From assembly GCA_023205875.1 (NCBI GenBank), contig CP060759.1, positions 930,001 to 994,000 on the forward strand: 64,000 bases of DNA, in the 5' to 3' direction. The notes under the pieces are model-generated. The model worked only from the letters and a program-made list of their open reading frames with translations, made no database searches and had not been told where the DNA came from. The position numbers and the translations under genes are program-made. The stretch is from Chloropicon primus. Lineage: Eukaryota. Below, in pieces: positions 3,001 through 35,165 of the stretch (positions within the stretch are counted from its first letter, which is position 1; each line of letters starts with the position of its first letter).

Positions 3001-6000
3001 ATTCAGCGCACGGACCAAAACCTTAATGCCATTCTCGACAAAGTAAGAGAGAAAGCCAATGTGGAGGTTATCGCATGTGATGTGAGCAAAGAAGATCATG
3101 TGCGCAATCTCTACACAAAGCAAAACCATCCTTGTGTGGGAATTATACATGCTGCCGGTGTCTTACGAGATGGCCTTGCTGCAAATCTCAACCATACTCA
3201 GGTCCAACAGGTATTTGACCCAAAGATCAGTGGCGCTTTGCATTTGCATCACAACACACTCCTGCAGCCATTGCAGGTATGCATCATGTTCTCCTCCATA
3301 GCTTCACTCTATGGAAACATTGGTCAGACCTCCTACAGTGCAGCAAATACCTATCTTGATACTTTGGCTGCTCTAAGGCAAAACCAAGGCCTTCCTGCGG
3401 TCAGCATACAATGGCCAGCAATATCTGGCATTGGCATGTGGGAAGGTCTATCAAGTGTCCACAAGAAAACAACACCGTTCACGCTGTCTGTCGAGGGAGC
3501 TATCACATCTCTCAATAAGATTGTGAAGGACCTTTCATCCTTCACAATCACAACCGTGACGATTTTACCAAGGTGGATGATCTACGGAACCAGGGAAAAG
3601 AACAAAGCACACATGGCAGCAAAGGCGGATCCAAATGAAATCCAGCGGCAGCCAACAAGCGGAAGAAGCCAGAGCGTCAAATTCACATCTGTAGCTGTGT
3701 TGACTTCCCAAGTGCAAAATACAATTGAGCAAGCAGTCATAGATACTATTGGAGAAACCATTGACACGGAAAGTCCTCTCATGGAAGCAGGAGTCGACTC
3801 GCTTGCTTCATCAGAGCTTATCAACAAGATCAATGATGACATGGGAACCTCTTTGGGGCCCACAATCTTGTTCGACTATCCAACAATTCAGGATCTCACA
3901 CAGCACCTTGTGCAGACCCTCGAAGGACCTGACGCTACAGATCACGCCATTGAGGCTGTGGAGCGCATCCCAAACCATGATCCAATGCATGCTGTGACAA
4001 CAACAATGCTGTCTTCTGCTATCAGATATCCAAACCATACAAATTCAAACCAAAGGTTCTTGAATGTCCTTAACAACCAATCCGAGCTTTGCTCAGTCAC
4101 TCCACTTCAACGGTGGGACCGCATGGATTGGTATTCCTCACAGGGCTATGGGAACGACATCTATGTGCCCTTTGGATACTGGCTTCCAGACCTCTGGACA
4201 TTCCAACCTGATGCACTAAGCATGACTTCCGCAGAATCCCTTTATGTGGACCCACAAGGAAGGAAGCTCCTGGAGGTCACATGGGAGGCCATGTACAACA
4301 CTCCTCTATCTTCAAACAAACATGCCAGAACAAATACAGGTGTTTATGTAGGATGTTGTCAACAAGAATTTCAGCACATGCACTACTATCCTGAGAAAAA
4401 AGCACTCCTTACTGGATATAGCTTCCTTTGTGGTCGTGTTTCTTATGTGATGGGCTTCAAAGGACCATGCATCAGCATAGATACTGCATGTTCCTCCTCG
4501 CTTGCAGCAACTCACTTGGGCAGGACAGCCATTATAGCACATGAATGCGATACAGCAACAATAGCAGGAACAAATATAATGATTGCACCACAAACAACGC
4601 AAGCTATTTGCAATTTGCAAGCCCTTGCCGTGGATGGAAGATGCAAAACCCTTGATGCAACTGCAAATGGATATGGCCGTGCCGAAGCTATTGCTGCCGT
4701 AATCATTGCAAATGCAAACGATACACACACGAACATGCTCAAAATGCCTGTCAACATCGTTGCATCTTTTGTGAACCAAGATGGAAGATCAAGCAGTCTG
4801 ACTGCACCAAATGGGCCATCACAGTCAACACTCATCTCATCTGCTTTGAGGCAAGCAAATCTGAAGCCAGAACAAATCAACCATGTTGTCATGCATGGAA
4901 CAGGAACACCTCTGGGTGACCCAATTGAGGTTGGTGCCCTGGGACAAGCATTCCATTCAGATGACAAAGTTCATATGCTTGCACTTGCTGCAGTCAAGGT
5001 TGCTTTCGGACATACAGAAGGAGCAGCAGGACTCACGGGCCTACTTAGTGCAATGCAGTCGTGTAGCACGTTATGCATTCAACCGGTTACCGCATGCAGA
5101 AACATGAATGTTCATGTGCAGGGTGCAATCAAAGATCATAGAGATGGGCACAAAAGAGTCACTTCTGCAAGGATTCAACAAGGTCCTTGGTCATTCACTT
5201 GTGATGAAAACAATGACAAAGCAATCGCAGGGACAAGCTCGTTTGGCATGAGCGGAGTCAACAGTCACGGGGTTGTTGAAGCAAAACTTGCAGGTCATAC
5301 TTACAATGCGCAGAGTATTGCATGGAACAACAAGCAAGTACTCTTCCCAATGGTTGGGTGTGCATTTGTGAAGGCTTCCTACAAAGCATCTACAAAACAA
5401 CACCAAGTATTTGCGATTCAAATCAAGGACCACAACCTTCTGAGCTACATGGTCATGGGGAAATCCATTTTACCAGGTGCAGGATTCATGGAACTGTCAT
5501 CAGCCTCTGCACGAGCTATGCTCAATCCAAACGTCTTACGTGATCTCAAACCAGTGCTTGCAAAGATATCAATTCCAGCCCCGATGCAGTTGGAACCAAA
5601 CAAACATCAAATGATGCAATGTACGGTGGACACAGTGACCGGACAAGTAGGACTGAAAAGTCACAAAACCTGGAATCTCCAAGCCATATGGAAGAAACCA
5701 GTCAAACACTTGCCAGAGCGCCAAACCACACACCAAGATCAAAACGAGTGGAACAAAGGCATCATGGGTATAATGCACCACAATCAAGCTGCACACACAG
5801 CCAATGCAATTGCAACAGTCGCCAAAACATCAAATGACCTCTATGATTACACCGTCAACCCAGCTGTGGGCGACGCAAATCTACAGCTTGGTGCCGTGGA
5901 AAGCGTGATTCGTTTGGCGAGCCAAGACAATGCTAGTCAAGAAACGCAAGTACCAACGGGTTGCCATGCCTATTACATGGACGACCAGTCAGATGCTCCA

Positions 6001-9000
6001 GCAGCATACACGGCAGTCTGTCAGAATGGCTCCCAAGCTGGCATCTCAAGCCATAGACTAAAAAGTCTATGTGAAGAGATCAACTGTGCCTCAGTTCTCA
6101 ATTTGCAAACCAAAGCAGCATTTAGATCGCAAAGTGCTTTGAATGCAGCCAACAGCCAACAGAAAGTGCAAGAAAAGGACATGCTCTTATCGGCTTTGGT
6201 GTGGTCAGCCTGCTATGCGACCCCTCTGGACTGCGCTGCTCATCAAAATGCAATAATCGCAGGATCAAGGGACGCACAAGAGAATGTGCTTCTCGTGAAA
6301 CTTGGAGACGCGCAATCCAATTTGGAGCATCCTCTCAAGATTGCATGCAGAAATGCAGGAGCTCTCTATTCATCATCTCATGTGGATAGTCCTGAAATGC
6401 AAGAGTACCTGACAAACACCTCAAAGTCGGTCCACGTTGTTTGCCTTGTCTCGCACCAAGCAAATGTTGCAAAGCAACTTGTAGGCCTTGCCAACCTTGT
6501 CAAAGCGGTGAACAAGTCAAACATGGAATCACCTAGTATCACTGTGGTTTTCTTGGATTCACAAACGACCATGAACGTCCAACACAACACCTCAAAAGCA
6601 TTGTGGGGAGCATGCAGGACGATGAGAATGGAGTACCCATCCTTGCAATTGACAACCATTCAAATGGATGCACACATGGACAAGAGTCAGGCAGCTCTTT
6701 ACCTCGTGTCAGAAATCCAAAACAAACATTCAACTGAAAAGGAAGTCATGTACAAGAATGCGACACGATACATCAATACCATTGTGGAGAAGTATCCTTC
6801 TGCATCACAGCATCTCTCCCTCAATCCACATCTGGAAAAGCTCCAGAGAGGATCATATGTTATCACAGGAGGTCTTGGAGGTCTGGGCCTTGTGACCGCG
6901 CAACTTCTTGCAGATATGGGAGCGACAAGCATATCTCTCCTCTCAAGAAGTGGCATCATTCAGCGCACGGACCAAAACCTTAATGCCATTCTCGACAAAG
7001 TAAGAGAGAAAGCCAATGTGGAGGTTATCGCATGTGATGTGAGCAAAGAAGATCATGTGCGCAATCTCTACACAAAGCAAAACCATCCTTGTGTGGGAAT
7101 TATACATGCTGCCGGTGTCTTACGAGATGGCCTTGCTGCAAATCTCAACCATACTCAGGTCCAACAGGTATTTGACCCAAAGATCAGTGGCGCTTTGCAT
7201 TTGCATCACAACACACTCCTGCAGCCATTGCAGGTATGCATCATGTTCTCCTCCATAGCTTCACTCTATGGAAACATTGGTCAGACCTCCTACAGTGCAG
7301 CAAATACCTATCTTGATACATTGGCTGCTCTAAGGCAAAACCAAGGCCTTCCTGCGGTCAGCATACAATGGCCAGCAATATCTGGCATTGGCATGTGGGA
7401 AGGTCTATCAAGTGTCCACAAGAAAACAACACCGTTCACGCTGTCTATCGAGGGAGCTATCACATCTCTCAATAAGATTGTGAAGGACCTTTCATCCTTC
7501 ACAATCACAACCGTGACGATTTTACCAAGGTGGATGATCTACGGAACCAGGGAAAAGAACAAAGCACACATGGCAGCAAAGGCGGATCCAAATGAAATCC
7601 AGCGGCAGCCAACAAGCGGAAGAAGCCAGAGCGTCAAATTCACATCTGTAGCTGTGTTGACTTCCCAAGTGCAAAATACAATTGAGCAAGCAGTCATAGA
7701 TACTATTGGAGAAACCATTGACACGGAAAGTCCTCTCATGGAAGCAGGAGTCGACTCGCTTGCTTCATCAGAGCTTATCAACAAGATCAATGATGACATG
7801 GGAACCTCTTTGGCGCCCACAATCTTGTTCGACTATCCAACAATTCAGGATCTCACACAGCACCTTGTGCAGACCCTCAAAGGACCTGACGCTACAGATC
7901 ACGCCATTGAGGCTGTGGAGCGCATCCCAAACCATGATCCAATGCATGCTGTGACAACAACAATGCTGTCTTCTGCTATCAGATATCCAAACCATACAAA
8001 TTCAAACCAAAGGTTCTTGAATGTCCTTAACAACCAGTCCGAGCTTTGCTCAGTCACTCCACTTCAACGGTGGGACCGCATGGATTGGTATTCCTCACAG
8101 GGCTATGGGAACGACATCTATGTGCCCTTTGGATACTGGCTTCCAGACCTCTGGACCTTCCAACCTGATGCACTAAGCATGACTTCCGCAGAATCCCTTT
8201 ATGTGGACCCACAAGGAAGGAAGCTCCTGGAGGTCACATGGGAGGCCATGTACAACACTCCTCTATCTTCAAACAAACATGCCAGAACAAATACAGGTGT
8301 TTATGTAGGATGTTGTCAACAAGACTTTCAGCACATGCACTACTATCCTGAGAAAAAAGCACTCCTTACTGGATATAGCTTCCTTTGTGGTCGTGTTTCT
8401 TATGTGATGGGCTTCAAAGGACCATGCATCAGCATAGATACTGCATGTTCCTCCTCGCTTGCAGCAACTCACTTGGGCAGGACAGCCATTATAGCACATG
8501 AATGTGATACAGCAACAATAGCAGGAACAAATATAATGATTGCACCACAAACAACGCAAGCTATTTGCAATTTGCAAGCCCTTGCCGTGGATGGAAGATG
8601 CAAAACCCTTGATGCAACTGCAAATGGATATGGCCGTGCCGAAGCTATTGCTGCCGTAATCATTGCAAATGCAAACGATACACAAACGAACATGCTCAAA
8701 ATGCCTGTCAACATCGTTGCATCTTTTGTGAACCAAGATGGAAGATCAAGCAGTCTGACTGCACCAAATGGGCCATCACAGTCAACACTCATCTCATCTG
8801 CTTTGAGGCAAGCAAATCTGAAGCCAGAACAAATCAACCATGTTGTCATGCATGGAACAGGAACACCTCTGGGTGACCCAATTGAGGTTGGTGCCCTGGG
8901 ACAAGCATTCCATTCAGATGACAAAGTTCATATGCTTGCACTTGCTGCAGTCAAGGTTGCTTTTGGACATACAGAAGGAGCAGCAGGACTCACGGGCCTA

Positions 9001-12000
9001 CTTAGTGCAATGCAGTCGTGTAGCACGTTATGCATTCAACCGGTTACCGCATGCAGAAACATGAATGTTCATGTGCAGGGTGCAATCAAAGATCATAGAG
9101 ATGGGCACAAAAGAGTCACTTCTGCAAGGATTCAACAAGGTCCTTGGTCATTCACTTGTGATGAAAACAATGACAAAGCAATCGCAGGGACAAGCTCGTT
9201 TGGCATGAGCGGAGTCAACAGTCACGGGGTTGTTGAAGCAAAACTTGCAGGCCATACTTACAATGCGCAGAGTATTGCATGGAACAACAAGCAAGTACTC
9301 TTCCCAATGGTTGGGTGTGCATCTGTGAAGGCTTCCTACAAAGCACCTACAAAACAACACCAAGCATTTGCGATTCAAATCAAGGACCACAACCTGCTCG
9401 ACCACATGGTCATGGGGAAATCCATTTTACCAGGTGCAGGATTCATGGAACTGTCATCAGCCTCTGCACGAGCTATGCTTAATCCAAACGTCTTACGTGA
9501 TCTCAAACCAGTGCTTGCAAAGATATCAATTCCAGCCCCGATGCAGTTGGAACCAAACAAACATCAAATGATGCAATGTACGGTGGACACAGTGACCGGA
9601 CAAGTAGGACTGAAAAGTCACAAAACCTGGAATCTCCAAGCCATATGGAAGAAACCAGTCAAACACTTGCCAGAGCGCCAAACCACACACGAAGATCAAA
9701 ACGAGTGGAACAAAGGCATCATGGGTATAATGCACCACAATCAAGCTGCACACACAGCCAATGCAATTGCAACAGTCGCCAAAACATCAAATGACCTCTA
9801 TGATTACACCGTCAACCCAGCTGTGGGCGACGCAAATCTACAGCTTGGTGCCGTGGAAAGCGTGATTCGTTTGGCGAGCCAAGACAATGCTAGTCAAGAA
9901 ACGCAAGTACCAACGGGTTGCCATGCCTATTACATGGGCGACCAGTCAGATGCTCCAGCAGCATACACGGCAGTCTGTCAGAATGGCTCCCAAGCTGGCA
10001 TCTCAAGCCATAGACTAAAAAGTCTATGTGAAGAGATCAACTGTGCCTCAGTTCTCAATTTGCAAACCAAAGCAGCATTTAGATTGCAAAGTGCTTTGAA
10101 TGCAGCCAACAGCCAACAGAAAGTGCAAGAAAAGGACATGCTCTTATCGGCTTTGGTGTGGTCAGCCTGCTATGCGACCCCTCTGGACTGCGCTGCTCAT
10201 CAAAATGCAATAATCGCAGGATCAAGGGACGCACAAGAGAATGTGCTTCTCGTGAAACTTGGAGACGCGCAATCCAATTTGGAGCATCCTCTCAAGATTG
10301 CATGCAGAAATGCAGGAGCTCTCTATTCATCATCTCATGTGGATAGTCCTGAAATGCAAGAGTACCTGACAAACACCTCAAAGTCGGTCCACGTTGTTTG
10401 CCTTGTCTCGCACCAAGCAAATGTTGCAAAGCAACTTGTAGGCCTTGCCAACCTTGTCAAAGCGGTGAACAAGTCAAACATGGAATCACCTAGTATCACT
10501 GTGGTTTTCTTGGATTCACAAACGACCATGAACGTCCAACACAACACCTCAAAAGCATTGTGGGGAGCATGCAGGACGATGAGAATGGAGTACCCATCCT
10601 TGCAATTGACAACCATTCAAATGGATGCACACATGGACAAGAGTCAGGCAGCTCTTTACCTCGTGTCAGAAATCCAAAACAAACATTCAACTGAAAAGGA
10701 AGTCATGTACAAGAATGCGACACGATACATCAATACCATTGTGGAGAAGTATCCTTCTGCATCACAGCATCTCTCCCTCAATCCACATCTGGAAAAGCTC
10801 CAGAGAGGATCATATGTTATCACAGGAGGTCTTGGAGGTCTGGGTCTTGTGACCGCGCAACTTCTTGCAGATATGGGAGCGACAAGCATATCTCTCCTCT
10901 CAAGAAGTGGCATCATTCAGCGCACGGACCAAAACCTTAATGCCATTCTCGACAAAGTAAGAGAGAAAGCCAATGTGGAGGTTATCGCATGTGATGTGAG
11001 CAAAGAAGATCATGTGCGCAATCTCTACACAAAGCAAAACCATCCTTGTGTGGGAATTATACATGCTGCCGGTGTCTTACGAGATGGCCTTGCTGCAAAT
11101 CTCAACCATACTCAGGTCCAACAGGTATTTGACCCAAAGATCAGTGGCGCTTTGCATTTGCATCACAACACACTCCTGCAGCCATTGCAGGTATGCATCA
11201 TGTTCTCCTCCATAGCTTCACTCTATGGAAGCATTGGTCAGACCTCCTACAGTGCAGCAAATACCTATCTTGATACTTTGGCTGCTCTAAGGCAAAACCA
11301 AGGCCTTCCTGCGGTCAGCATACAATGGCCAGCAATATCTGGCATTGGCATGTGGGAAGGTCTATCAAGTGTCCACAAGAAAACAACACCGTTCACGCTG
11401 TCTGTCGAGGGAGCTATCACATCTCTCAATAAGATTCTGAAGGACCTTTCATCCTTCACAATCACAACCGTGACGATTTTACCAAGGTGGATGATCTACG
11501 GAACCAGGGAAAAGAACAAAGCACACATGGCAGCAAAGGCGGATCCAAATGAAATCCAGCGGCAGCCAACAAGCGGAAGAAGCCAGAGCGTCAAATTCAC
11601 ATCTGTAGCTGTGTTGACTTCCCAAGTGCAAAATACAATTGAGCAAGCAGTCATAGATACTATCGGAGAAACCATTGACACGGAAAGTCCTCTCATGGAA
11701 GCAGGAGTCGACTCGCTTGCTTCATCAGAGCTTATCAACAAGATCAATGATGACATGGGAACCTCTTTGGGGCCCACAATCTTGTTCGACTATCCAACAA
11801 TTCAGGATCTCACACAGCACCTTGTGCAGACCCTCAAAGGACCTGACGCTACAGATCACGCCATTGAGGCTGTGGAGCGCATCCCAAACCATGATCCAAT
11901 GCATGCTGTGACAACAACAATGCTGTCTTCTGCTATCAGATATCCAAACCATACAAATTCAAACCAAAGGTTCTTGAATGTCCTTAACAACCAATCCGAG

Positions 12001-15000
12001 CTTTGCGCAGTCACTCCACTTCAACGGTGGGACCGCATGGATTGGTATTCCTCACAGGGCTATGGGAACGACATCTATGTGCCCTTTGGATACTGGCTTC
12101 CAGACCTCTGGACATTCCAACCTGATGCACTAAGCATGACTTCCGCAGAATCCCTTTATGTGGACCCACAAGGAAGGAAGCTCCTGGAGGTCACATGGGA
12201 GGCCATGTACAACACTCCTCTATCTTCAAACAAACATGCCAGAACAAATACAGGTGTTTATGTAGGATGTATGTACACAGAGTATCCACATATCCTGAAG
12301 GGGGCAAATATGACAAACAATGCTGGTACAGGTACTGGAAGCGGCATTAGCTTCCTTTGTGGTCGTGTTTCTTATGTGATGGGCTTCAAAGGACCATGCA
12401 TCAGCATAGATACTGCATGTTCCTCCTCGCTTGCAGCAACTCACTTGGGCAGGACAGCCATTATAGCACATGAATGTGATACAGCAACAATAGCAGGAAC
12501 AAATATAATGATTGCACCACAAACAACGCAAGCTATTTGCAATTTGCAAGCCCTTGCCGTGGATGGAAGATGCAAAACCCTTGATGCAACTGCAAATGGA
12601 TATGGCCGTGCCGAAGCTATTGCTGCCGTAATCATTGCAAATGCAAACGATACATACACGAACATGCTCAAAATGCCTGTCAACATCGTTGCATCTTTTG
12701 TGAACCAAGATGGAAGATCAAGCAGTCTGACTGCACCAAATGGGCCATCACAGTCAACACTCATCTCATCTGCTTTGAGGCAAGCAAATCTGAAGCCAGA
12801 ACAAATCAACCATGTTGTCATGCATGGAACAGGAACACCTCTGGGTGACCCAATTGAGGTTGGTGCCCTGGGACAAGCATTCCATTCAGATGACAAAGTT
12901 CATATGCTTGCACTTGCTGCAGTCAAGGTTGCTTTCGGACATACAGAAGGAGCAGCAGGACTCACGGGCCTACTTAGTGCAATGCAGTCGTGTAGCACGT
13001 TATGCATTCAACCGGTTACCGCATGCAGAAACATGAATGTTCATGTGCAGGGTGCAATCAAAGATCATAGAGATGGGCACAAAAGAGTCACTTCTGCAAG
13101 GATTCAACAAGGTCCTTGGTCATTCACTTGTGATGAAAACAATGACAAAGCAATCGCAGGGACAAGCTCGTTTGGCATGAGCGGAGTCAACAGTCACGGG
13201 GTTGTTGAAGCAAAACTTGCAGGCCATACTTACAATGCGCAGAGTATTGCATGGAATAACAGGCAAGTACTCTTCCCAATGGTTGGGTGTGCATCTGTGA
13301 AGGCTTCCTACAAAGCACCTACAAAACAACACCAAGCATTTGCGATTCAAATCAAGGACCACAACCTGCTCGACCACATGGTCATGGGGAAATCCATTTT
13401 ACCAGGTGCAGGATTCATGGAACTGTCATCAGCCTCTGCACGAGCTATGCTTAATCCAAACGTCTTACGTGATCTCAAACCAGTGCTTGCAAAGATATCA
13501 ATTCCAGCCCCGATGCAGTTGGAACCAAACAAACATCAAATGATGCAATGTACGGTGGACACAGTGACCGGACAAGTAGGACTGAAAAGTCACAAAACCT
13601 GGAATCTCCAAGCCATATGGAAGAAACCAGTCAAACACTTGCCAGAGCGCCAAACCACACACGAAGATCAAAACGAGTGGAACAAAGGCATCATGGGTAT
13701 AATGCACCACAATCAAGCTGCACACACAGCCAATGCAATTGCAACAGTCGCCAAAACATCAAATGACCTCTATGATTACACCGTCAACCCAGCTGTGGGC
13801 GACGCAAATCTACAGCTTGGTGCCGTGGAAAGCGTGATTCGTTTGGCGAGCCAAGACAATGCTAGTCAAGAAACGCAAGTACCAACGGGTTGCCATGCCT
13901 ATTACATGGGCGACCAGTCAGATGCTCCAGCAGCATACACGGCAGTCTGTCAGAATGGCTCCCAAGCTGGCATCTCAAGCCATAGACTAAAAAGTCTATG
14001 TGAAGAGATCAACTGTGCCTCAGTTCTCAATTTGCAAACCAAAGCAGCATTTAGATTGCAAAGTGCTTTGAATGCAGCCAACAGCCAACAGAAAGTGCAA
14101 GAAAAGGACATGCTCTTATCGGCTTTGGTGTGGTCAGCCTGCTATGCGACCCCTCTGGACTGCGCTGCTCATCAAAATGCAATAATCGCAGGATCAAGGG
14201 ACGCACAAGAGAATGTGCTTCTCGTGAAACTTGGAGACGCGCAATCCAATTTGGAGCATCCTCTCAAGATTGCATGCAGAAATGCAGGAGCTCTCTATTC
14301 ATCATCTCATGTGGATAGTCCTGAAATGCAAGAGTACCTGACAAACACCTCAAAGTCGGTCCACGTTGTTTGCCTTGTCTCGCACCAAGCAAATGTTGCA
14401 AAGCAACTTGTAGGCCTTGCCAACCTTGTCAAAGCGGTGAACAAGTCAAACATGGAATCACCTAGTATCACTGTGGTTTTCTTGGATTCACAAACGACCA
14501 TGAACGTCCAACACAACACCTCAAAAGCATTGTGGGGAGCATGCAGGACGATGAGAATGGAGTACCCATCCTTGCAATTGACAACCATTCAAATGGATGC
14601 ACACATGGACAAGAGTCAGGCAGCTCTTTACCTCGTGTCAGAAATCCAAAACAAACATTCAACTGAAAAGGAAGTCATGTACAAGAATGCGACACGATAC
14701 ATCAATACCATTGTGGAGAAGTATCCTTCTGCATCACAGCATCTCTCCCTCAATCCACATCTGGAAAAGCTCCAGAGAGGATCATATGTTATCACAGGAG
14801 GTCTTGGAGGTCTGGGTCTTGTGACCGCGCAACTTCTTGCAGATATGGGAGCGACAAGCATATCTCTCCTCTCAAGAAGTGGCATCATTCAGCGCACGGA
14901 CCAAAACCTTAATGCCATTCTCGACAAAGTAAGAGAGAAAGCCAATGTGGAGGTTATCGCATGTGATGTGAGCAAAGAAGATCATGTGCGCAATCTCTAC

Positions 15001-18000
15001 ACAAAGCAAAACCATCCTTGTGTGGGAATTATACATGCTGCCGGTGTCTTACGAGATGGCCTTGCTGCAAATCTCAACCATACTCAGGTCCAACAGGTAT
15101 TTGACCCAAAGATCAGTGGCGCTTTGCATTTGCATCACAACACACTCCTGCAGCCATTGCAGGTATGCATCATGTTCTCCTCCATAGCTTCACTCTATGG
15201 AAGCATTGGTCAGACCTCCTACAGTGCAGCAAATACCTATCTTGATACATTGGCTGCTCTAAGGCAAAACCAAGGCCTTCCTGCGGTCAGCATACAATGG
15301 CCAGCAATATCTGGCATTGGCATGTGGGAAGGTCTATCAAGTGTCCACAAGAAAACAACACCATTTACTTTGGCAGTGACAGATGTTGTGAAGGTGATGA
15401 AACATCTTGTTTCAAGTGTCCCAATTCCTGCACCAAACATTGCTATGCTGCCACAAAGCCTCGTTCACGACGTAAATGTTGAGAGGAAGCAAAACGATAA
15501 AAACATGGACCCTGTTGTTGATACAAAGGATCCGTCTTGGTATGAATTGCCTTCTCAATGGAAGCAGTTGCAAGTGACTAAGCTCTCCAACAACTTCAGT
15601 GAAGCAACTTCGATGCAGCATCTCAACACATTAGATTGTGAAGAAAATGAAGTGGTAGTACGGGTCATCTATGCAGGAGTCAATGCTAGTGATGTCAACT
15701 TCAGTGCTGGAAAGTACCATGGAAGTGAAGCAGCAGCAACGAAAGCTCTCCCATTTGCAGCTGGACTTGAAGGTGTAGGTCTTGTGGTTAAGAAAGGAAG
15801 CAAAACAAAGATCTCTATTGGGAGTCCCGTGGCATGCATGGCACCTGGTTGTTATTCAGACTTCCTCACAATCAAGGAAAGCAGTCTACTTACTATCTCT
15901 GAGATACAAATTGAGACAGTTGCACTGCTAACATCTGGACTCACAGCAACGCTTGCGCTTTCTCAAGTCGGCCAAATGAAAAATGGTGGTGAAACCGTCC
16001 TAGTTACAGCAGCCGCTGGTGGCACCGGTCAATTTGCTGTTCAGCTTGCAAAACTGGCAGGTAACCGTGTTATAGCAACATGCAGCAACCCAAGAAAGAA
16101 AGATCTTCTTGAAGAACTCGGAGCAGAACGTGTCATCAACTACAAATTGGAAGATGTCCAAAAAGTTCTCAAAGAAGAATACCCACGTGGCATTTCCCTT
16201 GTATATGATGGAGTTGGAGGGAAATTGCTTCAAAACATTCTTCCAGCTGTGTCGCCACTGGGTAGAATTGTCACCATTGGCGCCGTGTCAACATACCAAG
16301 CAGATGAAGAATCTGCGTTGAAACAGGAGCACATGCAAAGTTTGTACCAACGTGGAGTGTCCATCTTGGGCTTTTACTTGCCCGCATACAAGAGTCAGTT
16401 CCAAAAGTACCTCAATCAACTCTGTGACCTTCATCGCACTAAGAAACTTAGGGTACACGTGGATGTCAAGAAACGATATTGCGGGGCTGAAATGGCCCCT
16501 GATGCTGTCAAAGATCTCCACTCTGGAAAGACTCAGGGGAAGGTTGTTGTGCAAATACCACAACATGTGCCAAAAACATTCAAAGACCTTTCTGCTCAGC
16601 TCAAAACTAATTACAGCCTGAACACGAATGCAGTACCAAAAAGCAAAGACAGCAACAAAATGCAAGTTGACGTTGTCTCCCTGACTTCCCAAGTGCAAAA
16701 AACAATTGAGCAAGCAGTCATAGATACTATTGGAGAAACCATTGACACGGAAAGTCCTCTCATGGAAGCAGGAGTCGACTCGCTTGCTTCATCAGAGCTT
16801 ATCAACAAGATCAATGATGACATGGGAACCTCTTTGGCGCCCACAATCTTGTTCGACTATCCAACAATTCAGGATCTCACACAGCACCTTGTGCAGACCC
16901 TCAAAGGACCTGACGCTACAGATCACGCCATTGAGGCTGTGGAGCGCATCCCAAACCATGATCCAATGCATGCTGTGACAACAACAATGCTGTCTTCTGC
17001 TATCAGATATCCAAACCATACAAATTCAAACCAAAGGTTCTTGAATGTCCTTAACAACCAATCCGAGCTTTGCGCAGTCACTCCACTTCAACGGTGGGAC
17101 CGCATGGATTGGTATTCCTCACAGGGCTATGGGAACGACATCTATGTGCCCTTTGGATACTGGCTTCCAGACCTCTGGACATTCCAACCTGATGCACTAA
17201 GCATGACTTCCGCAGAATCCCTTTATGTGGACCCACAAGGAAGGAAGCTCCTGGAGGTCACATGGGAGGCCATGTACAACACTCCTCTATCTTCAAACAA
17301 ACATGCCAGAACAAATACAGGTGTTTATGTAGGATGCATGTCCACAGAGTACCCACATATCCTGAAGGGGGCAAACATGGCAAACAATGCTGGTACAGGT
17401 ACTGGAAGCGGCATTAGCTTCCTTTGTGGTCGTGTTTCTTATGTGATGGGCTTCAAAGGACCATGCATCAGCATAGATACTGCATGTTCCTCCTCCCTTG
17501 CAGCAACTCACTTGGGCAGGACAGCCATTATAGCACATGAATGTGATACAGCAACAATAGCAGGAACAAATATAATGATTGCACCACAAACAACGCAAGC
17601 TATTTGCAATTTGCAAGCCCTTGCCGTGGATGGAAGATGCAAAACCCTTGATGCAACTGCAAATGGATATGGCCGTGCCGAAGCTATTGCTGCCGTAATC
17701 ATTGCAAATGCAAACGATACATACACGAACATGCTCAAAATGCCTGTCAACATCGCTGCATCTTTTGTGAACCAAGATGGAAGATCAAGCAGTCTGACTG
17801 CACCAAATGGGCCATCACAGTCAACACTCATCTCATCTGCTTTGAGGCAAGCAAATCTGAAGCCAGAACAAATCAACCATGTTGTCATGCATGGAACAGG
17901 AACACCTCTGGGTGACCCAATTGAGGTTGGTGCCCTGGGACAAGCATTCCATTCAGATGACAAAGTTCATATGCTTGCACTTGCTGCAGTCAAGGTTGCT

Positions 18001-21000
18001 TTTGGACATACAGAAGGAGCAGCAGGACTCACGGGCCTACTTAGTGCAATGCAGTCGTGTAGCACGTTATGCATTCAACCGGTTACCGCATGCAGAAACA
18101 TGAATGTTCATGTGCAGGGTGCAATCAAAGATCATAGAGATGGGCACAAAAGAGTCACTTCTGCAAGGATTCAACAAGGTCCTTGGTCATTCACTTGTGA
18201 TGAAAACAATGACAAAGCAATCGCAGGGACAAGCTCGTTTGGCATGAGCGGAGTCAACAGTCACGGGGTTGTTGAAGCAAAACTTGCAGGCCATACTTAC
18301 AATGCGCAGAGTATTGCATGGAACAACAAGCAAGTACTCTTCCCAATGGTTGGGTGTGCATTTGTGAAGGCTTCCTACAAAGCATCTACAAAACAACACC
18401 AAGTATTTGCGATTCAAATCAAGGACCACAACCTGCTCGACCACATGGTCATGGGGAAATCCATTTTACCAGGTGCAGGATTCATGGAACTGTCATCAGC
18501 CTCTGCACGAGCTATGCTCAATCCAAACGTCTTACGTGATCTCAAACCAGTGCTTGCAAAGATATCAATTCCAGCCCCGATGCAGTTGGAACCAAACAAA
18601 CATCAAATGATGCAATGTACGGTGGACACAGTGACCGGACAAGTAGGACTGAAAAGTCACAAAACCTGGAATCTCCAAGCCATATGGAAGAAACCAGTCA
18701 AACACTTGCCAGAGCGCCAAACCACACACGAAGATCAAAACGAGTGGAACAAAGGCATCATGGGTATAATGCACCACAATCAAGCTGCACACACAGCCAA
18801 TGCAATTGCAACAGTCGCCAAAACATCAAATGACCTCTATGATTACACCGTCAACCCAGCTGTGGGCGACGCAAATCTACAGCTTGGTGCCGTGGAAAGC
18901 GTGATTCGTTTGGCGAGCCAAGACAATGCTAGTCAAGAAACGCAAGTACCAACGGGTTGCCATGCCTATTACATGGGCGACCAGTCAGATGCTCCAGCAG
19001 CATACACGGCAGTCTGTCAGAATGGCTCCCAAGCTGGCATCTCAAGCCATAGACTAAAAAGTCTATGTGAAGAGATCAACTGTGCCTCAGTTCTCAATTT
19101 GCAAACCAAAGCAGCATTTAGATCGCAAAGTGCTTTGAATGCAGCCAACAGCCAACAGAAAGTGCAAGAAAAGGACATGCTCTTATCGGCTTTGGTGTGG
19201 TCAGCCTGCTATGCGACCCCTCTGGACTGCGCTGCTCATCAAAATGCAATAATCGCAGGATCAAGGGACGCACAAGAGAATGTGCTTCTCGTGAAACTTG
19301 GAGACGCGCAATCCAATTTGGAGCATCCTCTCAAGATTGCATGCAGAAATGCAGGAGCTCTCTATTCATCATCTCATGTGGATAGTCCTGAAATGCAAGA
19401 GTACCTGACAAACACCTCAAAGTCGGTCCACGTTGTTTGCCTTGTCTCGCACCAAGCAAATGTTGCAAAGCAACTTGTAGGCCTTGCCAACCTTGTCAAA
19501 GCGGTGAACAAGTCAAACATGGAATCACCTAGTATCACTGTGGTTTTCTTGGATTCACAAACGACCATGAACGTCCAACACAACACCTCAAAAGCATTGT
19601 GGGGAGCATGCAGGACGATGAGAATGGAGTACCCATCCTTGCAATTGACAACCATTCAAATGGATGCACACATGGACAAGAGTCAGGCAGCTCTTTACCT
19701 CGTGTCAGAAATCCAAAACAAACATTCAACTGAAAAGGAAGTCATGTACAAGAATGCGACACGATACATCAATACCATTGTGGAGAAGTATCCTTCTGCA
19801 TCACAGCATCTCTCCCTCAATCCACATCTGGAAAAGCTCCAGAGAGGATCATATGTTATCACAGGAGGTCTTGGAGGTCTGGGTCTTGTGACCGCGCAAC
19901 TTCTTGCAGATATGGGAGCGACAAGCATATCTCTCCTCTCAAGAAGTGGCATCATTCAGCGCACGGACCAAAACCTTAATGCCATTCTCGACAAAGTAAG
20001 AGAGAAAGCCAATGTGGAGGTTATCGCATGTGATGTGAGCAAAGAAGATCATGTGCGCAATCTCTACACAAAGCAAAACCATCCTTGTGTGGGAATTATA
20101 CATGCTGCCGGTGTCTTACGAGATGGCCTTGCTGCAAATCTCAACCATACTCAGGTCCAACAGGTATTTGACCCAAAGATCAGTGGCGCTTTGCATTTGC
20201 ATCACAACACACTCCTGCAGCCATTGCAGGTATGCATCATGTTCTCCTCCATAGCTTCACTCTATGGAAGCATTGGTCAGACCTCCTACAGTGCAGCAAA
20301 TACCTATCTTGATACTTTGGCTGCTCTAAGGCAAAACCAAGGCCTTCCTGCGGTCAGCATACAATGGCCAGCAATATCTGGCATTGGCATGTGGGAAGGT
20401 CTATCAAGTGTCCACAAGAAAACAACACCGTTCACGCTGTCTGTCGAGGGAGCTATCACATCTCTCAATAAGATTCTGAAGGACCTTTCATCCTTCACAA
20501 TCACAACCGTGACGATTTTACCAAGGTGGATGATCTACGGAACCAGGGAAAAGAACAAAGCACACATGGCAGCAAAGGCGGATCCAAATGAAATCCAGCG
20601 GCAGCCAACAAGCGGAAGAAGCCAGAGCGTCAAATTCACATCTGTAGCTGTGTTGACTTCCCAAGTGCAAAAAACAATTGAGCAAGCAGTCATAGATACT
20701 ATTGGAGAAACCATTGACACGGAAAGTCCTCTCATGGAAGCAGGAGTCGACTCGCTTGCTTCATCAGAGCTTATCAACAAGATCAATGATGACATGGGAA
20801 CCTCTTTGGGGCCCACAATCTTGTTCGACTATCCAACAATTCAGGATCTCACACAGCATCTTGTGCAGACCCTCAAAGGACCTGACGCTACAGATCACGC
20901 CATTGAGGCTGTGGAGCGCATCCCAAACCATGATCCAATGCATGCTGTGACAACAACAATGCTGTCTTCTGCTATCAGATATCCAAACCATACAAATTCA

Positions 21001-24000
21001 AACCAAAGGTTCTTGAATGTCCTTAACAACCAATCCGAGCTTTGCGCAGTCACTCCACTTCAACGGTGGGACCGCATGGATTGGTATTCCTCACAGGGCT
21101 ATGGGAACGACATCTATGTGCCCTTTGGATACTGGCTTCCAGACCTCTGGACATTCCAACCTGATGCACTAAGCATGACTTCCGCAGAATCCCTTTATGT
21201 GGACCCACAAGGAAGGAAGCTCCTGGAGGTCACATGGGAGGCCATGTACAACACTCCTCTATCTTCAAACAAACATGCCAGAACAAATACAGGTGTTTAT
21301 GTAGGATGCATGTCCACAGAGTACCCACATATCCTGAAGGGGGCAAACATGGCAAACAATGCTGGTACAGGTACTGGAAGCGGCATTAGCTTCCTTTGTG
21401 GTCGTGTTTCTTATGTGATGGGCTTCAAAGGACCATGCATCAGCATAGATACTGCATGTTCCTCCTCCCTTGCAGCAACTCACTTGGGCAGGACAGCCAT
21501 TATAGCACATGAATGTGATACAGCAACAATAGCAGGAACAAATATAATGATTGCACCACAAACAACGCAAGGTGTTTGCAATTTGCAAGCCCTTGCCGTG
21601 GATGGAAGATGCAAAACCCTTGATGCAACTGCAAATGGATATGGCCGTGCCGAAGCTATTGCTGCCGTAATCATTGCAAATGCAAACGATACACACACGA
21701 ACATGCTCAAAATGCCTGTCAACATCGTTGCATCTTTTGTGAACCAAGATGGAAGATCAAGCAGTCTGACTGCACCAAATGGGCCATCACAGTCAACACT
21801 CATCTCATCTGCTTTGAGGCAAGCAAATCTGAAGCCAGAACAAATCAACCATGTTGTCATGCATGGAACAGGAACACCTCTGGGTGACCCAATTGAGGTT
21901 GGTGCCCTGGGACAAGCATTCCATTCGGATGACAAAGTTCATATGCTTGCACTTGCTGCAGTCAAGGTTGCTTTCGGACATACAGAAGGAGCAGCAGGAC
22001 TCACGGGCCTACTTAGTGCAATGCAGTCGTGTAGCACGTTATGCATTCAACCGGTTACCGCATGCAGAAACATGAATGTTCATGTGCAGGGTGCAATCAA
22101 AGATCATAGAGATGGGCACAAAAGAGTCACTTCTGCAAGGATTCAACAAGGTCCTTGGTCATTCACTTGTGATGAAAACAATGACAAAGCAATCGCAGGG
22201 ACAAGCTCGTTTGGCATGAGCGGAGTCAACAGTCACGGGGTTGTTGAAGCAAAACTTGCAGGCCATACTTACAATGCGCAGAGTATTGCATGGAATAACA
22301 GGCAAGTACTCTTCCCAATGGTTGGGTGTGCATTTGTGAAGGCTTCCTACAAAGCATCTACAAAACAACACCAAGTATTTGCGATTCAAATCAAGGACCA
22401 CAACCTGCTCGACCACATGGTCATGGGGAAATCCATTTTACCAGGTGCAGGATTCATGGAACTGTCATCAGCCTCTGCACGAGCTATGCTCAATCCAAAC
22501 GTCTTACGTGATCTCAAACCAGTGCTTGCAAAGATATCAATTCCAGCCCCGATGCAGTTGGAACCAAACAAACATCAAATGATGCAATGTACGGTGGACA
22601 CAGTGACCGGACAAGTAGGACTGAAAAGTCACAAAACCTGGAATCTCCAAGCCATATGGAAGAAACCAGTCAAACACTTGCCAGAGCGCCAAACCACACA
22701 CGAAGATCAAAACGAGTGGAACAAAGGCATCATGGGTATAATGCACCACAATCAAGCTGCACACACAGCCAATGCAATTGCAACAGTCGCCAAAATATCA
22801 AATGACCTCTATGATTACACCGTCAACCCAGCTGTGGGCGACGCAAATCTACAGCTTGGTGCCGTGGAAAGCGTGATTCGTTTGGTGAGCCAAGACAATG
22901 CTAGTCAAGAAACGCAAGTACCAACGGGTTGCCATGCCTATTACATGGGCGACCAGTCAGATGCTCCAGCAGCATACACGGCAGTCTGTCAGAATGGCTC
23001 CCAAGCTGGCATCTCAAGCCATAGACTAAAAAGTCTATGTGAAGAGATCAACTGTGCCTCAGTTCTCAATTTGCAAACCAAAGCAGCATTTAGATCGCAA
23101 AGTGCTTTGAATGCAGCCAACAGCCAACAGAAAGTGCAAGAAAAGGACATGCTCTTATCGGCTTTGGTGTGGTCAGCCTGCTATGCGACCCCTCTGGACT
23201 GCGCTGCTCATCAAAATGCAATAATCGCAGGATCAAGGGACGCACAAGAGAATGTGCTTCTCGTGAAACTTGGAGACGCGCAATCCAATTTGGAGCATCC
23301 TCTCAAGATTGCATGCAGAAATGCAGGAGCTCTCTATTCATCATCTCATGTGGATAGTCCTGAAATGCAAGAGTACCTGACAAACACCTCAAAGTCGGTC
23401 CACGTTGTTTGCCTTGTCTCGCACCAAGCAAATGTTGCAAAGCAACTTGTAGGCCTTGCCAACCTTGTCAAAGCGGTGAACAAGTCAAACATGGAATCAC
23501 CTAGTATCACTGTGGTTTTCTTGGATTCACAAACGACCATGAACGTCCAACACAACACCTCAAAAGCATTGTGGGGAGCATGCAGGACGATGAGAATGGA
23601 GTACCCATCCTTGCAATTGACAACCATTCAAATGGATGCACACATGGACAAGAGTCAGGCAGCTCTTTACCTCGTGTCAGAAATCCAAAACAAACATTCA
23701 ACTGAAAAGGAAGTCATGTACAAGAATGCGACACGATACATCAATACCATTGTGGAGAAGTATCCTTCTGCATCACAGCATCTCTCCCTCAATCCACATC
23801 TGGAAAAGCTCCAGAGAGGATCATATGTTATCACAGGAGGTCTTGGAGGTCTGGGTCTTGTGACCGCGCAACTTCTTGCAGATATGGGAGCGACAAGCAT
23901 ATCTCTCCTCTCAAGAAGTGGCATCATTCAGCGCACGGACCAAAACCTTAATGCCATTCTCGACAAAGTAAGAGAGAAAGCCAATGTGGAGGTTATCGCA

Positions 24001-27000
24001 TGTGATGTGAGCAAAGAAGATCATGTGCGCAATCTCTACACAAAGCAAAACCATCCTTGTGTGGGAATTATACATGCTGCCGGTGTCTTACGAGATGGCC
24101 TTGCTGCAAATCTCAACCATACTCAGGTCCAACAGGTATTTGACCCAAAGATCAGTGGCGCTTTGCATTTGCATCACAACACACTCCTGCAGCCATTGCA
24201 GGTATGCATCATGTTCTCCTCCATAGCTTCACTCTATGGAAGCATTGGTCAGACCTCCTACAGTGCAGCAAATACCTATCTTGATACTTTGGCTGCTCTA
24301 AGGCAAAACCAAGGCCTTCCTGCGGTCAGCATACAATGGCCAGCAATATCTGGCATTGGCATGTGGGAAGGTCTATCAAGTGTCCACAAGAAAACAACAC
24401 CATTTACTTTGGCAGTGACAGATGTTGTGAAGGTGATGAAACATCTTGTTTCAAGTGTCCCAATTCCTGCACCAAACATTGCTATGCTGCCACAAAGCCT
24501 CGTTCACGACGTAAATGTTGAGAGGAAGCAAAACGATAAAAACATGGACCCTGTTGTTGATACAAAGGATCCGTCTTGGTATGAATTGCCTTCTCAATGG
24601 AAGCAGTTGCAAGTGACTAAGCTCTCCAACAACTTCAGTGAAGCAACTTCGATGCAGCATCTCAACACATTAGATTGTGAAGAAAATGAAGTGGTAGTAC
24701 GGGTCATCTATGCAGGAGTCAATGCTAGTGATGTCAACTTCAGTGCTGGAAAGTACCATGGAAGTGAAGCAGCAGCAACGAAAGCTCTCCCATTTGCAGC
24801 TGGACTTGAAGGTGTAGGTCTTGTGGTTAAGAAAGGAAGCAAAACAAAGATCTCTATTGGGAGTCCCGTGGCATGCATGGCACCTGGTTGTTATTCAGAC
24901 TTCCTCACAATCAAGGAAAGCAGTCTACTTACTATCTCTGAGATACAAATTGAGACAGTTGCACTGCTAACATCTGGACTCACAGCAACGCTTGCGCTTT
25001 CTCAAGTCGGCCAAATGAAAAATGGTGGTGAAACCGTCCTAGTTACAGCAGCCGCTGGTGGCACCGGTCAATTTGCTGTTCAGCTTGCAAAACTGGCAGG
25101 TAACCGTGTTATAGCAACATGCAGCAACCCAAGAAAGAAAGATCTTCTTGAAGAACTCGGAGCAGAACGTGTCATCAACTACAAATTGGAAGATGTCCAA
25201 AAGTTCTCAAAGAAGAATACCCACGTGGCATTTCCCTTGTATATGATGGAGTTGGAGGGAAATTGCTTCAAAACATTCTTCCAGCTGTGTCGCCACTGGG
25301 TAGAATTGTCACCATTGGCGCCGTGTCAACATACCAAGCAGATGAAGAATCTGCGTTGAAACAGGAGCACATGCAAAGTTTGTACCAACGTGGAGTGTCC
25401 ATCTTGGGCTTTTACTTGCCCGCATACAAGAGTCAGTTCCAAAAGTACCTCAATCAACTCTGTGACCTTCATCGCACTAAGAAACTTAGGGTACACGTGG
25501 ATGTCAAGAAACGATATTGCGGGGCTGAAATGGCCCCTGATGCTGTCAAAGATCTCCACTCTGGAAAGACTCAGGGGAAGGTTGTTGTGCAAATACCACA
25601 ACATGTGCCAAAAACATTCAAAGACCTTTCTGCTCAGCTCAAAACTAATTACAGCCTGAACACGAATGCAGTACCAAAAAGCAAAGACAGCAACAAAATG
25701 CAAGTTGACGTTGTCTCCCTGACTTCCCAAGTGCAAAAAACAATTGAGCAAGCAGTCATAGATACTATTGGAGAAACCATTGACACGGAAAGTCCTCTCA
25801 TGGAAGCAGGAGTCGACTCGCTTGCTTCATCAGAGCTTATCAACAAGATCAATGATGACATGGGAACCTCTTTGGCGCCCACAATCTTGTTCGACTATCC
25901 AACAATTCAGGATCTCACACAGCACCTTGTGCAGACCCTCAAAGGACCTGACGCTACAGATCACGCCATTGAGGCTGTGGAGCGCATCCCAAACCATGAT
26001 CCAATGCATGCTGTGACAACAACAATGCTGTCTTCTGCTATCAGATATCCAAACCATACAAATTCAAACCAAAGGTTCTTGAATGTCCTTAACAACCAAT
26101 CCGAGCTTTGCGCAGTCACTCCACTTCAACGGTGGGACCGCATGGATTGGTATTCCTCACAGGGCTATGGGAACGACATCTATGTGCCCTTTGGATACTG
26201 GCTTCCAGACCTCTGGACATTCCAACCTGATGCACTAAGCATGACTTCCGCAGAATCCCTTTATGTGGACCCACAAGGAAGGAAGCTCCTGGAGGTCACA
26301 TGGGAGGCCATGTACAACACTCCTCTATCTTCAAACAAACATGCCAGAACAAATACAGGTGTTTATGTAGGATGCATGTCCACAGAGTACCCACATATCC
26401 TGAAGGGGGCAAACATGGCAAACAATGCTGGTACAGGTACTGGAAGCGGCATTAGCTTCCTTTGTGGTCGTGTTTCTTATGTGATGGGCTTCAAAGGACC
26501 ATGCATCAGCATAGATACTGCATGTTCCTCCTCGCTTGCAGCAACTCACTTGGGCAGGACAGCCATTATAGCACATGAATGTGATACAGCAACAATAGCA
26601 GGAACAAATATAATGATTGCACCACAAACAACGCAAGGTGTTTGCAATTTGCAAGCCCTTGCCGTGGATGGAAGATGCAAAACCCTTGATGCAACTGCAA
26701 ATGGATATGGCCGTGCCGAAGCTATTGCTGCCGTAATCATTGCAAATGCAAACGATACATACACGAACATGCTCAAAATGCCTGTCAACATCGTTGCATC
26801 TTTTGTGAACCAAGATGGAAGATCAAGCAGTCTGACTGCACCAAATGGGCCATCACAGTCAACACTCATCTCATCTGCTTTGAGGCAAGCAAATCTGAAG
26901 CCAGAACAAATCAACCATGTTGTCATGCATGGAACAGGAACACCTCTGGGTGACCCAATTGAGGTTGGTGCCCTGGGACAAGCATTCCATTCAGATGACA

Positions 27001-34685: not shown

Positions 34686-35165
34686 GTGCAGCAGGCAGGT
34701 CACCACCTCCCGGCTTGGTCCAGTCTGACGACCCCTCGACCCTTTTTTCTGATCCAAAAAAAAATCAAACACGAAAACGCAGCAGCAGCAGAGAGAGAGA
34801 GAAGTTGTGGTTGTGGGTGTCGTCGCCTTTTCACCGAGGACTTCCGTTCCGCCCCCCCCTCCCCAGGGTGACGGCGCGAGGGGAAGAATGGCACCTCTCT
34901 GAGTTCTCGCGCTCTCCGGAGGAACGGAAGGCGACGGACGACGACAGACGACGACGACGGAACTCCACTCCAACTCCTCGATGAATGACGATGACGATGA
35001 TGACGATATCTTTTCGTGGGTTGTCGTTGCTGCTGGTGGTGGTCGGTTGCGGGTGGCCCACGCGGGACAAATCAATCTTGCCTCTAGGTCGTCGATAGCC
35101 TCGTCGAGCGCAAATATTACTGGCGACCGGACTGGATCTACCTTCTTCCTTGCAACGCACGCAGA

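Follow-up and report, generated by a model that had tools for sequence, protein, structure and literature searches.

A PTGR3/NQR-type reductase domain behind the KR of an AT-less polyketide synthase in Chloropicon primus: a candidate cis-acting enoylreductase

The enoylreductases (ERs) integrated in polyketide synthases (PKSs) and FASs are as a rule regarded as a single lineage whose place is before the catalytic KR. One question then is what to make of a PKS in Chloropicon primus, in which a reductase domain of apparently different descent stands behind the KR: to which family does this domain belong, from where was it recruited, and does it serve the module in which it resides? The locus opens a stretch of 64,000 nucleotides (contig CP060759.1, positions 930,001 to 994,000, forward strand), referred to below, at its full length, as the window. 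An original prediction, made from the sequence without database searches, had described the domain as a PTGR3/ZADH2-like enoylreductase; here we examine its setting, family, origin and probable function.

The polyketide synthase and its cassette

Motif and Pfam scans resolve the PKS into seven KS-DH-KR-(ER)-ACP modules and a terminal thioesterase (TE). It is intronless, its modules are 98.0-99.75% identical in DNA, and on the + strand it is read as a 5'-open ORF of 8452 aa (1-25359) and a second frame of 2254 aa (25152-31916). The features relevant to the argument, in which the domain under study is termed the cassette ER, are as follows.

1..31916, + strand: AT-less (trans-AT-type) modular type I PKS, 5' end upstream of the window, ~46% GC
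1456..1530, + strand: DH of module 1, catalytic His replaced by Tyr (the same in module 2 at 5413)
14779..15360, + strand: catalytic KR of module 4 (TGGLGG, YSAAN, GVLRDG)
15369..16681, + strand: cassette, module 4 copy (module-versus-module BLAST)
15369..15540, + strand: 5' part of this cassette, a probable diverged KR C-terminal tail and the KR-ER linker (alignment, model)
15541..16560, + strand: PTGR3/NQR-type MDR domain (the cassette ER) of module 4, 340 aa, complete, no stop codons
16561..16681, + strand: linker between cassette ER and ACP, 3' part of the cassette
16696..16905, + strand: ACP of module 4 (GVDSL at 16771)
24408..25719, + strand: cassette, module 6 copy, frame shifted in the assembly, one A missing behind 25198
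29474..30786, + strand: cassette, module 7 copy, followed by ACP and TE
31125..31913, + strand: thioesterase (GYSYG at 31338)

No AT motif of the GHSxG or YASH type was found in the PKS by motif scan, and none of the six PKS pieces scanned with Pfam matched Acyl_transf_1. The locus thus displays the several KS-(DH)-KR-ACP modules without AT by which algal trans-AT PKSs are recognised, and this AT-less multi-module layout agrees with the description of algal PKSs in passages of PMC4661987. The motifs DTACSS, HGTGT, GHTEG and GVDSL occur in all seven modules, with the KS Cys-His-His and the ACP serine intact, and the KR and TE motifs are intact as well; the DH has kept its catalytic His in modules 3-7 and has Tyr instead in modules 1 and 2. 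A motif scan of the window found no canonical ER, and no ER remnant occupies the canonical site, the structural-KR motif being followed after 89 residues by the Rossmann motif of the KR in six of the six modules of the first ORF. The final 1372 residues differ at two positions from P0002, entered at NCBI as 'alcohol dehydrogenase' of Chloropicon primus. The Chloropicon genome paper (PMC6731263) reports 12 PKS genes and several PKS regions of low GC, and domain architectures are not given in its passages on these genes or in the PKS table of its Supplementary Data 3.

The rest of the window, downstream of the PKS, has a GC content of 51-62% as against ~46% in the PKS, and holds two further genes of separate interest. 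The gene for REV3 (DNA polymerase zeta; ORF 35088-41327) contains a 364-aa intein-like insert (39120-40211, + strand; 45% GC), lying between YGD and TDS of a polymerase motif, beginning with Ser, ending with His-Asn and carrying a LAGLIDADG-like motif; its Pfam intein match is weak (E 2e-4, below cut-off), and none of the papers listed by a literature search mentions an intein. A vigilin-like multi-KH protein with a Pfam match to the SAP domain is encoded at 42734-48097 (+ strand).

When the modules are compared with one another by BLAST, 1313 bp in modules 4, 6 and 7 stand for 218 bp of modules 1, 2, 3 and 5, and the Pfam order around this cassette is KR, then ADH_N/ADH_zinc_N, then PP-binding. 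The predicted ~1.3-kb cassette and the order DH-KR-ER-ACP are thereby confirmed, and the motifs quoted for it lie in frame in the 8452-aa ORF. The accompanying claim, that the cassette replaces the KR C-terminus and linker, holds in that the cassette stands for those 218 bp, but not in full, since its first ~32 residues are probably a diverged KR tail. In shuffle tests their alignment with the replaced tail (p 0.001) and with that of the relative P0334 (p 0.0085) is better than chance, and AlphaFold, with low pLDDT in the KR part, models them as a helix after the KR; alignment and modelled helix together suggest that the cassette probably brings its own KR end. Profiles of the NQR linker and of generic KR tails both failed to score the cassette tail above shuffles. 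Entry by SDR/KR recombination with an NQR gene, the NQR linker being kept, was also considered, and the profiles gave it no support.

The three copies are identical save for the A missing behind 25198 in module 6. Since all four sequencing runs compared with module 6 carry this A at full depth, albeit in contigs that collapse the repeats, the frameshift is probably an assembly error. As annotated, the single-base slip in the A run splits the PKS, and the NCBI gene calls start either after the slip (P0390) or in the middle of a DH (P0002).

With modules 98-99.7% identical and at least one probable indel error in the assembly, one might suspect that the fusion itself is an artefact in which a PKS rich in repeats was wrongly joined to an NQR gene. 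This suspicion is largely refuted and deserves almost no credence: assembled contigs run across both ends of the cassette, X6 record 21 on the KR side and X6 record 23 and X7 record 11 on the ACP side, and the same fusion occurs in P0002, which is another record, and in the diverged relatives P0334 and P0388. As evidence of transcription the runs are weak: the library type of X1, X5 and X6 is a guess, and X17 has two short contigs on the domain. The number and order of the modules may nonetheless be misassembled among repeats that are 99% identical. The third-position GC of the domain (0.39) is like that of the PKS (0.43) and unlike that of two neighbouring genes (0.69-0.70), which suggests that the cassette is an old resident of the PKS.

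Family, domain order and distribution of the reductase

Searched against the PDB by sequence, the domain matches human PTGR3/ZADH2 best (E 2.7e-62), the next family following at 1.6e-28 and the best PKS ER, that of CurK, at 5.7e-20. Likewise, Foldseek with the AlphaFold model, in which pLDDT is mostly above 90 over the domain and low in the KR part, places PTGR3 first (E 1.9e-34, rmsd 2.5 A) and gives CurK 6.4e-24. The GVNASD-type and TAAAGG motifs recur in 114 and 117, respectively, of 119 NQR/PTGR3-like proteins and in none of 249 other PKS ERs, whereas the LNFxD-type and HAAxGG-type motifs, present in 200 and 222 of 250 PKS ERs, are absent from the cassette ER. No NCBIfam model scored above cut-off for the domain, and its ESM Atlas matches were generic MDR clusters only. 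In the survey behind these counts (250 ER domains from 252 PKS proteins, mostly bacterial and chosen by similarity rather than at random), identity to the cassette ER reached 33% at most, 238 ERs precede the KR, and both the order KR-ER-ACP and the PTGR3-type motifs are confined to the record of the locus itself.

The phylogeny points in the same direction. A tree of 53 MDR rows (LG+G4; hand-chosen subsets of 12 green NQR, 6 mite/oomycete, 13 bacterial PTGR3-like, 5 plasmid MDR and 15 PKS ER rows and 2 rows from the locus, built without human PTGR3 and without the host's own NQR) puts the cassette ER within the PTGR3-like group (100/98) and the PKS ERs in a separate group (100/99), and a constraint uniting it with the 15 PKS ERs is rejected (AU p 0.0005). 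Position before the catalytic KR, the LNFxD and HAAxGG motifs and common descent, the marks of a canonical ER, are all lacking. Membership of the PTGR3/ZADH2/NQR subfamily rather than of the canonical PKS ERs is therefore supported. On this point the original prediction, which named the PTGR3/ZADH2 type from motifs and proposed an MDR phylogeny as a check, is upheld by PDB search, Foldseek, motifs and tree alike, the domain not nesting among PKS ERs. Its second check, a survey of algal PKSs for the order KR-ER, also came out in its favour: the table of algal and related PKSs in the supplement of PMC4661987, as far as that table extends, lists ER-KR 71 times and KR-ER not once.

Order is nevertheless not where the novelty lies. 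NspD is described in print as KS-AT-KR-ER-ACP-TE, other KR-ER strings in the printed passages being generic or loose notations or KR-ER-KR calls. Among 20 cyanobacterial genomes, 4 of the 11 ER domains examined (of 12 matches in long ORFs) stand after a KR and before an ACP; one locus (L118:352-7068) has tandem KS-AT-KR-DH-ER-ACP modules, of which one was scanned, and L120 and L121 show the same spacing. These four ERs carry canonical motifs and are 25-29% identical to the cassette ER, so that the order by itself is not new: ER placement after the KR has precedent, and it is the lineage that is unusual. The suggestion of an undescribed architecture accordingly survives for the type of ER, for which word-limited searches found no second PKS, and fails for the order KR-then-ER, given the cyanobacteria and NspD.

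Two other arrangements met in the survey may be recorded here. The proteins P0135, P0136, P0149, P0292 and P0341 have the order ACP-ER-KS, and their ERs branch off as a group of their own inside the PKS ERs; P0216, a candidate for KR-ER, proved to have the order KR-ACP-ER.

Outside this strain the same arrangement is seen in two metagenome proteins. P0388 consists of cassette ER, ACP and TE and is 80% identical to the locus in the domain half, 74% in the ACP, 42% in the TE and 33% in the linker; in P0334, a fragment of DH and KR with 54% identity, the KR runs into the first residues of the domain. Word-limited searches found no further PTGR3-like domain in a PKS among proteins of 4648-14791 aa (50 matches of 1628 candidates) or of 1657-5273 aa (69 of 6428), the best PKS matches in these length-limited sets scoring 114 and 107 bits. 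Pattern scans of metagenome contigs returned 87 and 227 matches, none confirmed as a relative. The long fusions P0172, P0173 and P0175, tried as PKSs, carry unrelated domains (peptidase, kinases). A search of representatives with a KR-ER-ACP query, of which the best 150 of 70,591 were considered, was dominated by multi-KR PKSs, among which other fusions may be hidden. No description of a PTGR3/NQR-PKS fusion was found in the literature searched, which mostly excluded subscription journals, and among the matches listed 'prostaglandin reductase' is not mentioned beside 'polyketide synthase'. The fusion is real and conserved, and as a variant apparently undescribed.

Donor and origin of the domain

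Among 120 listed of 537 matches (596-2000 aa), the majority are plant and algal SDR-MDR (NQR/ARP) proteins, 44-47% identical to the domain over its full length, and its closest relatives appear to be the MDR halves of such green two-domain proteins rather than stand-alone genes. A further indication comes from the loop after GVNASD, which has 23 residues in the cassette ER and 20-24 in 112 of 114 green NQR proteins. It is shorter in those oomycete and mite rows that were scored (16-18 residues) and in the 31 of 80 bacterial rows that were scored (18); this insertion points to a green-lineage NQR donor. Union with green NQR is not rejected in constraint tests (AU p 0.355), whereas union with the bacterial homologues is (0.028); in the free tree the cassette ER is basal in the PTGR3-like group and does not join green NQR. 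The donor was likely a green-lineage two-domain NQR (SDR-MDR) protein. No PTGR3/NQR label for the host was found in 13 of the 20 supplementary files of the Chloropicon genome paper. Tandem pairs of PTGR3-like domains were observed in proteins of oomycetes and mites (P0005-P0007, P0295).

The low GC of the PKS raises the alternative that it was acquired horizontally from a bacterium in which a PTGR3-like ER was already in place, so that the recruitment did not occur in algae. PTGR3-like genes do exist in bacteria, with 35-43% identity to the domain, the GC content of the PKS (46%) is below the 51-62% found elsewhere in the window, and the placement in the free tree leaves room for such a source. 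This origin seems very improbable, since the 80 best bacterial loci with PTGR3-like genes have ORFs of at most 698 aa and no KS, KR or ACP match, no PKS of 1657-14791 aa with such an ER emerged from the word-limited searches, the bacterial clade is disfavoured by the constraint test and the loop is of green type; moreover, low GC is reported in passages of PMC6731263 for several Chloropicon PKS regions. Independent recruitment of a PTGR3/NQR-type reductase as a cis ER remains the best reading, as originally predicted, with the amendment that the source was probably half of an SDR-MDR (NQR) protein and not the stand-alone gene then envisaged. On this model, the MDR half of a green-lineage NQR gene would have entered a single module, behind its KR, at an early date, and module duplication or gene conversion would then have spread the cassette, whose ends fall at the same KR and ACP positions each time.

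Proposed function and comparison with known systems

We consider it probable that the cassette ER is the module's own cis enoylreductase acting on enoyl-ACP: with NADPH it would saturate the double bond left by the dehydratase on the ACP-bound chain. The glycine-rich motif is kept, as is a Tyr that all 13 aligned rows share and that we take to be the active-site Tyr of double-bond reductases. The cassette occurs in three of the five modules with an intact DH and in neither of the two with a dead DH, a co-occurrence that fits an enoylreductase and has a chance probability of 10/35 = 0.29, that is, not significant. The better conservation of the domain half than of ACP or TE in P0388 is likewise a function-like sign.

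The KS domains bear on the same issue, KS type being known to track upstream chemistry. In KS2 and KS3, which follow the DH-dead modules 1 and 2, a segment of 25 residues is distinct, as expected for module-by-module programming; no residue set was found that separates KS5 and KS7, which follow cassette-bearing modules, from KS6, which follows a module without the cassette, and this comparison lends the proposed function no support. Modules 1-3 (277-8200) are in themselves a case of KS specificity following upstream chemistry among modules 98-99% identical. If assembly order and colinearity hold, modules 1-7 would give hydroxyl, hydroxyl, alkene, saturated, alkene, saturated and saturated, with release by the TE of an acid with a 6- and a 10-ene and a 13,15-diol; because module number and order may be misassembled, this product pattern is soft.

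What is reported of related enzymes leaves some latitude. PTGR3 is described as a 15-oxoprostaglandin Delta13-reductase acting on an enone (PMC8919083), related MDRs pass hydride from NADPH to the beta-carbon (PMC8670242), NQR is a putative quinone reductase described as functionally uncharacterised (PMC10288848), and reduction of CoA thioesters by related plant double-bond reductases is disputed (PMC13249509; PMC11907408 offers general background only), in each case according to passages of these papers. An active cassette ER might thus work on the intermediate of a neighbouring module or on a released enone or enoyl by-product, in an NQR-like detoxifying role while tethered. In its favour, a passage of PMC9899208 describes enoylreduction across modules in azalomycin, passages of PMC8919083 and PMC10288848 give free enones and quinones as the reported substrates of the family, and the KSs downstream of cassette-bearing modules are not distinct. 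We nevertheless hold this to be unlikely: the domain directly precedes the ACP in some modules only and swaps as a precise cassette, which fits module-specific programming, and passages of PMC10921412 report that the gladiolin module-1 ER, which stands next to its ACP, acted on this ACP but did not reduce that of module 5. Less likely again is a mainly structural or dimerising role, enoyl reduction being left to a trans-acting enzyme encoded elsewhere. Passages on MDR double-bond reductases as homodimers (PMC8670242) and on trans-acting FabK-like ERs serving bacterial trans-AT PKSs (PMC10921412) make it conceivable; the intact nucleotide-binding motif and conserved Tyr, the conservation of the domain half in P0388 above ACP or TE, and the four modules that lack the domain altogether speak against it.

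Returning to enoyl reduction in cis, we favour, with moderate confidence, the wider reading that the Chloropicon lineage invented a second cis PKS ER by placing the MDR half of a peroxisomal NQR/PTGR3 protein behind the KR and switching it in and out of near-identical modules as a plug-in cassette by which saturation is programmed. If this is true, a reductase of general metabolism can be captured by an assembly line and become a fixed cis-acting part of it, and the cassette would be a naturally occurring, portable ER module from a lineage unreported in any PKS searched. Since sister modules 99% identical exist with and without the cassette, they offer natural boundaries for adding or removing the ER step in engineering, as well as a direct comparison. 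The domain also bears on the question of enoyl-thioester reduction by the poorly characterised NQR/PTGR3 family, and its architecture is easily missed because databases label the gene piece 'alcohol dehydrogenase'.

Comparison with known systems delimits what is particular to this locus. With human PTGR3/ZADH2 (MGC45594; PDB 2C0C, 2X7H, 2WEK) the cassette ER shares GVNASD, TAAAGGTGQFA and EYPxG and, in structural alignment, 37-38% identity; the human enzyme is stand-alone and targeted to peroxisomes, according to passages of PMC8919083, whereas the cassette ER is an internal PKS domain with a loop five residues longer. Green NQR/ARP proteins (At1g49670-like) share with it the loop length, LLTSGLTA and HSGK, and likewise have an SDR-fold domain followed by the MDR. 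The place of their N-terminal SDR is, however, taken by a PKS KR 98-99% identical to the KRs of the other modules, the linker gave no sign of homology to NQR, and the C-terminal (peroxisomal) targeting signal is missing, an ACP following instead.

Among PKSs, gladiolin module 1 (ACP-ER) and the trans-acting FabK-like GbnE resemble the present case as instances of non-canonical ER placement or recruitment in AT-less systems (passages of PMC10921412); the ACP-ER domains included in the tree fall among the canonical PKS ERs, unlike the cassette ER, and GbnE is a separate flavoprotein. In the cyanobacterial L118, L120 and L121 modules and in NspD the ER stands after the KR and immediately precedes the ACP, as in the modules described here. 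The cyanobacterial ones differ in being cis-AT, in the ~340 residues between KR and ER (a DH in the one scanned) and in the canonical ERs of L118, L120 and L121. Finally, the canonical cis ERs, including those of green-algal KS-DH-ER-KR-ACP modules (CrePKS1; C. eustigma P0134), share with the cassette ER the MDR fold in an AT-less, DH-bearing module and, presumably, the reaction, but belong to another MDR lineage with other motifs and stand before, not after, the catalytic KR.
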